The position numbers and the translations under genes were made by a program. 16,577 nucleotides of DNA. It comes from Polyangia bacterium (lineage in GTDB: Bacteria; Myxococcota_A; Polyangia; Palsa-1104; JAEUJZ01). Every line of letters begins with the position of its first letter. Position 1 is the first letter of the stretch. Location of the stretch: contig JAYRFD010001269.1 of the NCBI GenBank assembly GCA_041908565.1, positions 1 to 16,577 of the forward strand. The letters are read 5' to 3'. The notes under the pieces were generated by a model, which did no database searches, was not told the origin of the DNA, and saw nothing but the letters and a program-made list of their open reading frames with translations. This document shows positions 9,738 through 12,700 of this stretch, one piece after another.

Positions 9738-12700
9738 ATGGCTGGCACAGACTTGGGTTCGGTGGGCCCCCGGTATGAGCTGCGGGCTCGACTGGGTGCA
9801 GGCGGCATGGGCGAGGTGTACCGCGCGTGGGATCGCCTGGAAGGACACGAGATCGCGCTCAAGCGCCTGCTGCTGCCGCACGTCGATGTCGTGCAAGTGG
9901 GGTCCGAACCACAGCTGCAACGCGCGCCCGCCAGTGATGTCACGCAAGAGATGTCGCGCATCGAGTCTGGGCCGGCGATGGCAGCAGCTGATCAGGCGGC
10001 CCCACCGCGATCGGGACCGGTCTTCGCCGTGGACCTGCTTGAACCGTCGCTGCCGTTGTCGGTTCTGCTGACCGATTCGACGCTGCCAAGCAGCCGCGGC
10101 ACATCGGGCCAGCCCGAAGCCGAGCTACGACTTGCCTTAACGCAGGAGTTCCACACCCTCGCATCGCTGCGCCATCCCAACATCATCAGCGTGCTCGACT
10201 ACGGCTTTGATGAAGAGCGAGTCCCCTACTTCACGATGGAGTATCTCGCCGAGGCGCAGCCCATCTCGCTTGCCGCACCCGACACCACGCTGCAGGAACG
10301 GACCAGCCTGCTCTTGCAGATTCTGCAAGCCCTGCACTACCTGCACCGCCGCGGCATCCTGCATCGCGATCTGAAGCCGGCGAACATCTTGGTGGTGCGT
10401 GGGCCGGGCGGTCCCGTCGTCAAGCTGCTGGACTTTGGGCTGGCGGTTCTGCGTCGGGAAGCGGCGCGCAGCCATGCAGAGATCGCCGGCACGCCGGGCT
10501 ACATCGCGCCCGAGGTCTTGTTCGGATCGCCGCCTTCCGAACAGAGCGACCTGTTCGCGTTCGGCATCGTGGCCTTTCAGATCTTGAGCGGACGCAGCGC
10601 CATCGTGCGCGACACATCGGGCGAGCCGATCTTGAGCACCAGCGCCGAAGAGATCCACTGGGATGCGGTGCCACTTCACGACGCCCTGCGCGGCTGCCTG
10701 CAGCGTCTTTTGGCCCGCAGTCCAAGCGGCCGCTTTGCGCACGCCGAAGAAGCGGCACACGCCCTGCGATCTGCCGCGCAGATGCAGCAGCCCATCGATG
10801 ATGAGGCCACACAGGACAGCTTTCTTACGGCGGCCACGCTGGTTGGACGAGAACCCGAGCTGCGTGCGCTTAAGACCGCCCTCAAAGCGGCGCGCGCAGG
10901 ACACGGCGCGATGTGGCTTTTGGCCGGTGAAAGTGGCGTCGGCAAGTCGCGTCTGTGTGAAGAGCTGAAAGCGCAGGCGCAGGTGCGCGGCATCTCGGTG
11001 ATGCGTGGACAGGCCGATCGTCACACCGGTGGCCTGGATCTGTTTGTGCCCGCCCTGCGCACCCTGTGTCTGGCCGAGCCGCTAAGTGACCTGGAAGCCA
11101 GCATCCTCAAGCCGCTTTTGCCCGATCTTCCGCAGCTGCTTGGACGATCGATCGGCGACGCTCCCGAGCTGTCGACGCAGGCCGCGCGCCTGCGCTTGCT
11201 GCTGACCATGGAACACGTGCTTTTGGGCAGCATGACGCCGCTTCTTTTGCTGCTGGAAGACCTGCACTGGGCCCAGCCAGATAGCCTGGATCTGCTGCGC
11301 CGCCTGACGCAGAACCTGGCCGATCATCCGGTGCTGATCGTCGCCACGTTTCGCGATGACGAACGAGCCCAGCTGATCAGTGATCTGCCAGGCACGCAGC
11401 TGCTGAAGCTGCCGCGGCTTGGCAGCGATGCCGTGGGTGAGCTGATCGATTCGATGGTGGGGCCGATGGCGCATCGAGCCCAGCTGTTGGATCTGCTGCT
11501 GCGCGAAAGCGAAGGCAACACCTTCTTCATCGTGGAAGCGATGCGGACCTTGGTCGAAACCAGCGGTGGCTTGTCGAAGCTTTCGCAGTGCGATCTGCCG
11601 CGCTCGATCTTCGTCGGTGGCATCCAGCAGGCACTGCAGCGACGGTTGGCTCGCGTCCCCAGCCGCATGCACGCCCTGCTTGGCTTGGCGGCCGTGGCCG
11701 GTCGCACGTTGGATGAAGCGGTGCTTGCAGCGGCCAGGCCGGGCATCGACATCGCGCCGTTTCTGCAAAGCTGCAGCGATGTCGGCGTGCTGGAAGTCAG
11801 CGAACAGCACTATCGCTTTGCGCACGACAAGCTGCGCGAGAGCGTGCTTGCCGATCTAAGCGCCTCGGACCAAAGCGCCCTGCATGCCCAGCTGGCGCAG
11901 GCCATCGAGCGCGCCTATCCCGGCTCTGCCGTGCACGCCGCGCTGCTGTCGCATCACTACCTGGGCGCCGGCATGCTGCGCGAAGCTGGATCGTACGCGG
12001 CAAAGGCCGGTGAACAGGCCGTGCTGCGCGGCGCGCTGGCCGAAGCGCAGGTCCTTCTGCGACGCGCCATCGATCTGCTGCCGCAGCGCCGAAGCTCGTA
12101 CCTGCAGCGTGTGCGCCTGTATCGCTTGCTGCTGCATACCCACTTGGGTCTGGGTCAGCTGATGGATCGCGGTGCCGAGATCCTGGATGCACTGCAGGCC
12201 ATCGGGCAGCCCATGCCGGCGCAGCCCGCCGCGCTGGTGCCGGCCATCTCGCGGGCGGTGCTGCGTCAGGGCTGGAATCGCCTGCGGCCCACGCCCACGC
12301 AGCCGGAAAGCCCCCCAGAAGATGCCGCTGTCCAGACCGAGCTTTGTTACCTGTACCAGATCGTATCTGAGTATCTATTGTGGAAGAATCAGCCCCTGCC
12401 CGGCCTGTACTATGCGTATGAATCCGCCAACGCATCCGAACGACAAAGCGACCCCTTTGTCCGTTCTTTAGGATTTGCCTCTTTGAGCTATATTTATTGC
12501 ATTACCCCACTAAAAAATATCGCCAATATGTATGCGCGGCTGGCGGAAGATCAATACAGAATCGCCAGCAAATCTAATTTAATTATTTATCCACAGCGCG
12601 GCACAGCGTTTATGTATTCCTTTTCGGGTCAGCTGACGCAGGCGATCCGCATTGCGCAATCTGGCTTGCAGCTGGCCCAGGCGGCGGGCGACCCCATCGG

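Follow-up and report, generated by a model that had tools for sequence, protein, structure and literature searches.

Why should a gene in a GC-rich genome hold two short AT-rich stretches, each sharply bounded and each read through in an open frame? The question is raised by a gene for a STAND-type Ser/Thr protein kinase on contig JAYRFD010001269.1 of the Polyangia bacterium assembly GCA_041908565.1, of which the 16,577 nucleotides analyzed here (the window) have an overall GC content of 64.0%. The two stretches, which we call islands 1 and 2, are rich in codons that are rare in the other genes of the window and have a low GC content at third codon positions (GC3). They recur at the same positions in all ten members of a kinase subfamily, and we tentatively lean toward selection during gene expression as the force that keeps them. 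The features on which the argument turns are as follows:

9738..13466, + strand: STAND-type Ser/Thr protein kinase gene (protein kinase domain, AAA_16 NTPase and TPR-like sensor), from the open reading frame (ORF) list, Pfam and homologs
12342..12623, + strand: AT-rich rare-codon island 1 (aa 884-977; ~94 codons; GC 44.8%, GC3 ~0.45)
12615..13037, + strand: GC-normal TPR core between the islands (aa 975-1115; GC3 ~0.75-0.83)
13026..13187, + strand: AT-rich rare-codon island 2 (aa 1112-1165; ~54 codons; GC ~50%, GC3 0.37-0.53)

An earlier note on this DNA had described a sharp drop to about 45% GC over roughly 280 nt with an open reading frame. We measured 44.8% for positions 12340-12620, a z-score of -6.2 relative to all other 281-nt windows of the 16.6-kb stretch (mean 64.3%, sd 3.1, minimum 52.7%). 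The codon strings that the note quoted were located where it had placed them, and the weaker second patch at about 13040-13200 was recovered as well, at 49.7% GC. Its figure of about 70% GC for the gene was too high; the kinase ORF has 63.7% GC, or 66.1% once both islands are removed. The GC content was 0.445 at 12400-12599 and 0.525 at 13000-13199. In 30-codon windows, GC3 fell from about 0.78 to 0.43-0.50 (aa 911-970) and 0.37-0.53 (aa 1111-1160), and the GC content of first codon positions (GC1) fell too. The boundaries are sharp, within about 30 codons, and the frame 9693..13466 is open throughout, islands included.

The switch to synonymous codons otherwise avoided in the window, also claimed by the note, was borne out. 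The excess of A/T-ending codons inside the islands persisted after stratification by amino acid (Cochran-Mantel-Haenszel [CMH] test, p = 3.4e-10), and all 15 of the lowest-GC3 20-codon windows fell within the two islands when the six Pfam-supported genes of the window were compared. The sliding plots of GC, GC3 and codon usage that had been proposed as a check confirmed the dips, with an index similar to the codon adaptation index at 0.30-0.40 in the islands against a median of 0.64; its reference was the five other genes of the window, a small set for judging codon rarity. The codons enriched inside the islands and rare elsewhere were TTA, ATA, ATT, TAT, AAA, GAA, CCA and GGA. TTA occurs four times in the kinase gene, three of them in the islands (12468 and 12579 in island 1, 13158 in island 2), and 0, 2, 0, 0 and 0 times in the five neighboring genes. 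Island 1 also holds a 16-nt pure A/T run, TAATTTAATTATTTAT.

Position and turnover of the islands in the kinase subfamily

A protein search with the kinase returned more than 7,700 matches, among which the closest relatives form a small group at 56-80% identity inside a very large family. We assembled a subfamily set of ten sequences with 53-99% mutual identity, comprising the gene of the window (WIN) and L001, L002, L003, L005, L006, L007, L008, L009 and L017; the sequences of the relatives all come from metagenome-assembled contigs. In codon alignments, both GC3 dips lay at the same alignment columns in ten of the ten members, reaching 0.23-0.57 against a background of 0.72-0.83, and the amino acid-stratified CMH test was significant in each of the eight sequences tested (p = 3.6e-7 to 3e-21). 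In pooled counts, TTA made up 21% of leucine codons inside the islands and 0.9% outside, TAT 83% and 49% of tyrosine codons, and ATT plus ATA 61% and 15% of isoleucine codons; TTA was kept at alignment column 1007 in all five homologs that have leucine there. The subfamily genes lie in unrelated neighborhoods, with only the near-identical L017 syntenic with the window, and L002 and L007, which both carry the islands, are paralogs from one metagenome-assembled genome (MAG).

More distant members of the family, L014, L015 and L016 (35-38% identity), showed no dip. Their homologous helices are moderately AT-rich at codon positions 1 and 2, and the third position is normal (GC3 0.63-0.87). The nearest outgroup, L013 (44% identity, on a contig of 53% GC), has a GC3 of 0.30-0.50 over its whole C-terminal sensor domain, compared with about 0.54 upstream. 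The AT shift in L013 thus spans the entire sensor domain (2563-3820; gene 177-3911), not two islands.

The composition of the islands has outlasted their codons. Between deep clades, island codon identity at columns with the same residue was 0.36-0.49, and independent draws from the islands' own codon usage would give 0.40-0.43. Therefore, the synonymous sites have fully turned over while the composition has stayed unchanged. Third-position changes from A/T to G/C and from G/C to A/T were balanced, at 8:7 for WIN-L017 and 11:6, 11:9 and 13:10 for other pairs, although their polarization by parsimony is approximate and is crude at high GC3. Neither pairwise identities nor the ranking of homologs by phmmer, run locally against all proteins fetched, set island 1 or island 2 apart from the core between them or from the N-terminal part. 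Taken together, these alignments and counts showed that the islands are a position-specific compositional state, at equilibrium, that has been kept through speciation and gene duplication.

The same results bear on the possibility, raised in the earlier note, that the low-GC module came from a lower-GC donor. In its most tenable form, the sensor or the two blocks within it would be an old foreign or mosaic segment from a lower-GC lineage, acquired once, in the ancestor of the subfamily, or by repeated recombination and incompletely ameliorated. The uniformly low GC3 of the C-terminal domain in L013 is compatible with such an origin, as is the absence of dips from distant members, which would place the origin of the state on the branch to the subfamily and L013; the clustering of L005-L009 differences in island 2 might also reflect a recombination tract. 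Against it, synonymous sites are saturated between clades and the islands are kept in each clade, there is no net flux toward G/C, and the two islands enclose a GC-normal core that is part of the same domain and shares its history. Among the 549 clusters matching the domain profile at E < 1e-10, none was a low-GC donor family; contig scans with the C-terminal domain profile gave four loci in genomes and, in metagenomes, 475 pattern matches of which none was confirmed. The comparison of nearest homologs that the note had proposed did not point to another lineage, and neither divergent nearest homologs nor directional amelioration, as horizontal transfer would leave, was found. We therefore rejected a recent acquisition from a low-GC donor, given the saturated sites, the balanced fluxes, the shared affinities and the presence of the islands in all subfamily members, and we consider the older mosaic origin very unlikely.

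Compositional pressure and elements at the nucleic acid level

Orthologs that share the local AT richness while conserving the protein had been named in the earlier note as a sign of purely amino acid-driven composition. The orthologs do share it, but the amino acid-only inference fails because GC3 drops within each amino acid and the drop is not predicted by GC1, GC2 or neighboring bases. Outside the islands, the GC content of codon positions 1 and 2 (GC12) and GC3 were negatively correlated in the genes of the window (r = -0.37), and in the 101 windows there with GC12 at or below 0.45, GC3 averaged 0.85 and did not fall below 0.70. Across 39 other genes of related contigs, the correlation was r = -0.12, and only 0.9% of 30-codon windows had a GC3 at or below 0.45. 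Neighboring-base context was rejected as the cause: where the second base and the following base are both A/T (W-W context), GC3 was 0.81 outside the islands and 0.33 inside. Low GC3 as a general trait of conserved protein blocks was also rejected, as the Walker A region and the other most conserved blocks have an ordinary A/T content at third positions (AT3) of about 0.2. These tests showed, within the genes compared, that the islands are not a by-product of amino acid composition or base context. Inside the islands, AT3 was 0.55 in columns of invariant residues and 0.54 in columns of variable residues, which indicates that the AT shift is regional.

A regional shift could be non-adaptive. 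The force that favors G/C in this lineage, whether gene conversion or codon selection, may be locally ineffective, or mutation may be locally more AT-biased; for example, easily melted AT-rich DNA, seeded by conserved Tyr, Phe, Ile, Asn and Lys codons, would suffer more cytosine deamination and settle at a functionless AT equilibrium. The balanced fluxes fit this explanation, and so does a shift of variable columns toward FYMINK and away from GARP residues, a classic signature of mutational or compositional pressure. Intergenic DNA of the contigs goes down to 33-49% GC, so that an island GC3 of 0.45 need not undercut the neutral level, and other genes of these MAGs have milder dips of their own. 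Synonymous divergence was also higher inside the islands than outside, about 2-fold in two close pairs and about 10-fold in a third:

WIN-L017: odds ratio (OR) 2.2, p = 0.002
L002-L003: OR 2.0, p = 0.0009
L005-L009: OR 9.8, p = 4e-5

However, low-GC12 windows elsewhere keep a high GC3, as the means and correlations given above attest, which argues against a general AT-seeded runaway, and the distant family members keep a GC3 of 0.63-0.87 in homologous helices whose positions 1 and 2 are similarly AT-rich. Recombination tracts and GC-biased gene conversion act at the kilobase scale, whereas the island boundaries are sharp and are kept in paralogs at unrelated sites. To our knowledge, no mechanism would keep a heritable mutational regime of 150-280 nt attached to one segment of a gene. 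Three points make a generic neutral mechanism unlikely: AT-seeded stretches elsewhere keep their GC3, the boundaries are sharp and the state follows the gene to unrelated sites. We therefore regard a non-adaptive state of some kind as unlikely, though as a serious contender.

The pair L005 and L009, with 99% protein identity, deserves a separate remark. Of their 29 codon differences, 16 (9 synonymous and 7 nonsynonymous) lie in or adjoin island 2, at the equivalents of window aa 1102-1161 (nt ~12996-13175). Such a cluster could stem from recombination over a short tract, from variation between strains or from a local hotspot of mutation.

Specific elements embedded in the coding sequence were also considered: a promoter on either strand of the gene, a small gene overlapping it or a regulatory RNA with a defined structure. 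In a GC-rich genome, it is in AT-rich DNA that -10-like hexamers arise, and a weak antisense promoter match (8/12) was present at one offset in WIN, L001, L002 and L003. The promoter-like string TTGAGC...TATATT singled out in the earlier note did not hold up, as its hexamers are adjacent instead of 16-18 nt apart and give no sigma-70-type match. Our promoter scans covered sigma-70-type sites only, not extracytoplasmic function (ECF) or sigma-54 sites; within that scope, no sigma-70-like site was found in the islands where 0.4 were expected, and a relaxed scan of eight homologs gave counts at or below the expectation from synonymous shuffles, with no candidate common to all clades. Two terminator-like hairpins (+ strand; 12442-12461 and 12595-12610) were at shuffle expectation, a search of Rfam with the islands returned no match at E <= 1, and the only ORFs in other frames over the islands were stop-bounded ones of 26-36 aa. 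Predicted folding energies in eight homologs did not depart from synonymous shuffles beyond composition (mean z of -0.26 and +0.17), and the synonymous sites of the islands are not more conserved. These searches showed that the islands are not a sequence-specific element of these kinds, and the suggestion of an internal promoter or antisense element fell with them; we consider it extremely unlikely. A diversity-generating retroelement target was rejected as well: a search for direct and inverted repeats found no template/variable pair of that type or other repeat at the islands, there is no reverse transcriptase domain among the neighbors, and the islands are not hypervariable in protein sequence.

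An element that is read by composition would need no conserved sequence. The islands may serve as an AT-rich DNA or RNA element without a decoding role, such as a nucleoid silencer or CarD platform or an RNase E-type, Hfq or Rho site, and would then set kinase transcription or mRNA half-life. Several observations agree with this possibility. AT is enriched at all three codon positions, variable residue columns included, and the shift is regional and not residue-specific. AT clusters with AT only inside the islands, where GC3 was 0.33 in W-W context and 0.60 where both neighboring bases are G/C. No specific island sequence is conserved, as expected for proteins that read composition, and homologs share A/T runs of 10-16 nt at matching offsets. 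CarD of Myxococcus is an AT-hook protein that binds AT-rich tracts (PMC6061681), and the records of the relatives are labeled as MAGs of uncultured Myxococcales (or Pseudomonadota). Like the targets of the xenogeneic silencers H-NS, Lsr2 and MvaT and of CarD, the islands are sharp AT-rich patches in a GC-rich genome whose reading would likewise be one of composition. Unlike silencer targets, they were not recently acquired and lie inside a conserved coding domain, and known CarD sites are at promoters, not within genes. Moreover, the A/T runs are mostly no longer or more numerous than island codon usage predicts (most p > 0.1; only the maximum run of WIN reached p = 0.009), with a mild upward trend in the A/T-run content of island 1 in six of eight subfamily sequences. 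The C/G ratio of island 1 (0.79-1.45) is raised in most but not all homologs, and a rut-like signature of C over G was rejected for this inconsistency.

The direction of the shift at 4-fold degenerate sites is informative on the same point. In the islands, more A than T was gained (OR 1.47, p = 0.013), and G tended to be lost more often than C (OR 1.24, p = 0.07). This weak strand asymmetry favors a cause at the RNA or translation level over one in double-stranded DNA and speaks against a purely double-stranded-DNA signal. Weighing both sides, we judge an AT element without a decoding role to be unlikely.

Placement in the sensor and a possible role in translation

The kinase, the AAA_16 NTPase and a C-terminal helical-repeat sensor occur in one polypeptide, as Pfam, AlphaFold2 and Foldseek indicated, which places the protein among the STAND Ser/Thr kinases. 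Pfam matches were obtained for Pkinase (1.8e-36) and AAA_16 (5.1e-26), together with a weak TPR_MalT match at aa 975-1115. Calls of the start vary: the ORF is open from GTG 9693, ATG 9738 agrees with the 1242-aa start of the close homolog P0255, and the NCBI call of 1219 aa (P0001) would start at 9807. Besides the islands and the core, the gene includes the following parts:

10134..10613, + strand: Pfam-matched part of the protein kinase domain (aa 148-307)
10839..11342, + strand: AAA_16 (STAND-type) NTPase domain (aa 383-550), from Pfam
12285..12314, + strand: flexible Pro-rich linker (aa 865-874), with indels among homologs (alignment gaps)

No other protein block of the gene is as conserved as the AAA_16 domain, whose GC3 is normal (AT3 ~0.22). 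The Gly-loop and Lys motif of the kinase lie upstream of the Pfam match, at about aa 33-58. A low-complexity insert of about 85 residues (aa 60-147; window ~9870-10130) apparently splits these motifs from the Pfam-matched part, which begins at aa 148 with profile position 44.

An AlphaFold2 model of aa 690-1257, built from an alignment of 78 sequences, was an all alpha-helical solenoid (mean predicted local distance difference test score [pLDDT] 92.7, predicted template modeling score 0.90). Foldseek searches of the PDB with this model returned generic TPR super-helices, including MalT domain III (1hz4). In the model, the linker is a loop at model residues 176-185 with a dip in pLDDT. Island 1 starts about 10 codons past the linker and encodes five predicted alpha-helices (aa 875-977); in island 2, a loop of 12 residues (PMFAHDGSYEGY) is followed by two helices. 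The core between them (aa 975-1115) is the only stretch that matches Pfam TPR_MalT or TPR_12. According to the model, the islands thus sit within the helical sensor and flank its canonical TPR core. The MalT/LAL-type and PknK-type STAND regulators resemble the host gene in having an AAA_16-type NTPase followed by a TPR super-helix. The likeness concerns the host protein, not the islands, none of which has been described there, and the three distant family members examined here, unlike the subfamily, are without them.

On this basis, we put forward, as a possible but far from secure explanation, that the islands are selectively maintained stretches of rare-codon, AU-rich and weakly structured mRNA with a role at the RNA or translation level. 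A local pressure that opposes the genomic drive toward GC would hold about 94 and about 54 codons at a GC3 of about 0.45 in a lineage with a GC3 of about 0.8, and this pressure would be selection during gene expression. The mRNA would be locally AU-rich, G-poor and weakly structured (predicted folding energy of about -0.2 kcal/mol per nt in the islands and about -0.5 in the inter-island core), and it would be decoded by rare tRNAs, so that the pace of elongation may change where two non-canonical sub-modules of the helical sensor begin. The AT-richest core of island 1 would be translated 40-100 codons past the end of the preceding subdomain, as this subdomain has just left the ribosomal tunnel, and island 2 would open at the long loop that follows the canonical TPR core. 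The benefit may lie in an ordered co-translational folding of the long alpha-solenoid, or kinase synthesis may be tied to the supply of rare tRNAs, such as tRNA-Leu(UAA).

It is well established that rare codons can cluster at conserved positions within domains (Chaney et al. 2017, PLoS Comput Biol, PMC5438181). The islands resemble these conserved rare-codon clusters in that codons rare in the host, as judged against the five-gene reference, are clustered at the same alignment positions in ten homologous sequences, beyond what residues or GC content explain, and in that they lie within a conserved structured domain instead of a linker. In the features that can be read from sequence, each island agrees with a conserved rare-codon cluster, and a slowing of translation would be the predicted consequence. 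In comparison with the published clusters, the length of the islands (94 and 54 codons) and their depth (GC3 from 0.8 to 0.45) are unusual. The islands also occur in a single subfamily within a very large protein family, alter the composition of codon positions 1 and 2 as well as the residue make-up of variable columns, and show raised instead of lowered synonymous divergence. The programmed slow translation suggested in the earlier note therefore survives as a viable explanation and as the closest known category, with rare codons at conserved positions, but codon rarity on its own does not account for the shift at positions 1 and 2 and in variable residues.

Three considerations weigh against selection for rare codons and kept our confidence in it limited. 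First, in variable columns, the A/T content was 0.50 inside the islands versus 0.28 outside at position 1 and 0.65 versus 0.49 at position 2, with K, N, Y, F, I and M enriched and A, G and P depleted. Codon-rarity selection alone does not predict this shift; a pressure at the nucleotide level or some structural peculiarity of the helices is indicated instead. Second, across three independent close pairs, synonymous divergence is about 2-fold higher inside the islands, which a relaxed or cancelled constraint or an elevated mutation rate would explain no less well than positive selection of specific codons. Both the nonsynonymous-position shift and the raised synonymous rate suit an AT element or a non-adaptive state about equally well. 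Third, in a GC-rich genome, rare codons are AT-rich codons, and slow decoding and AU-rich RNA are inseparable by sequence.

If the islands are selected, they would be an unusually clean natural case of selection on synonymous or compositional features within a bacterial gene, being long, deep and sharply bounded, outlasting saturating synonymous turnover and gene duplication, and lying at defined structural boundaries of a confidently modeled domain. Such a case could help to separate rare-codon pausing, AU-rich mRNA and AT-rich DNA, which are usually confounded. If they are neutral, base composition can settle at different equilibria over distances of about 200 nt in a single gene, a pattern not predicted by current models of GC evolution. 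The locus is also a warning that a sharp intragenic GC drop in a MAG is not automatically a sign of horizontal transfer or chimeric assembly.

TTA codons, other islands and neighboring genes

In Streptomyces, the tRNA-Leu(UAA) encoded by bldA exerts translational control via single TTA codons. The kinase gene is similar in that it belongs to a GC-rich organism in which TTA is nearly absent (0-2 per neighboring gene) and is concentrated in a regulatory gene, with one TTA kept at the same column in the five homologs that have leucine there; judged against the five neighboring genes, TTA is thus very rare and yet retained in a gene of regulatory type. It differs in that TTA is just one of many enriched A/T-ending codons and in that islands of 50-90 codons take the place of single codons. 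We know of no regulated tRNA-Leu(UAA) in myxobacteria, the window contains no tRNA genes, and in the literature searched, neither intragenic AT-rich islands nor TTA control was described for myxobacteria, all TTA cases found there being of the Streptomyces type.

Other genes in the lineage also show local dips. In a 587-aa gene without a Pfam match that lies upstream of the kinase in L002 (685-932) and L003 (1701-1963), GC3 falls to 0.27-0.43 across a block rich in aromatic residues (PHYW.PVFAYHLL...AAYPSFLEYRSIVEM). Both orthologs have this dip, which suggests that in this lineage such islands are not unique to the kinase. A further island in L007 (14738-15119; gene 13962-15587, - strand) covers the receiver domain (aa 159-273) of a kinase/response-regulator fusion from the same MAG, with a GC3 of 0.30-0.57 compared with 0.75 for the gene.

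We speculate, at a low level of probability, that the islands, as long AU-rich stretches with TTA codons, are a coding-embedded device specific to this myxobacterial kinase subfamily that gates synthesis of the sensor domain. The gate would respond to how much rare tRNA is at hand in starvation or development, as a myxobacterial analogue of bldA of independent origin, or it would act through an AT-reading protein such as CarD on the DNA. In either case, control over the level of full-length kinase would come later than transcription initiation, and the milder islands in the receiver domain and the 587-aa protein would belong to a lineage-wide layer of control over signaling proteins.

The genes around the kinase are of separate interest. 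Directly upstream, positions 6655-9579 (+ strand) encode a 974-aa protein with Major Vault Protein domains (Pfam MVP_shoulder, 7e-21; Vault_3; Vault_4), a bacterial homolog of the eukaryotic vault shell protein. On the L017 contig, an MVP_shoulder gene also lies upstream of the kinase (1927-2832), encodes only 301 aa and adjoins a phage-type integrase. At the other end, an ORF of 174 aa (13457-13981, + strand) without a Pfam match starts 10 nt before the kinase stop (ATGGCCGTAG overlap); its Ala-Asp/Ala-Asn run is encoded by a GCCGAC/GCCAAC hexanucleotide repeat (13496-13534). In L017, a gene of 180 aa is called in the equivalent kinase-overlapping position (6692-7234). Further downstream, positions 14263-16248 (+ strand) encode a full-length angiotensin-converting-enzyme-like M2 peptidase (Peptidase_M2, E = 2e-220). 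Apart from the islands, the GC content of the window drops below 50% in 150-nt windows only at 813-964, just ahead of and around the start of a glycosyltransferase ORF (910..2466), in what is presumably the promoter and 5' region of that ORF.

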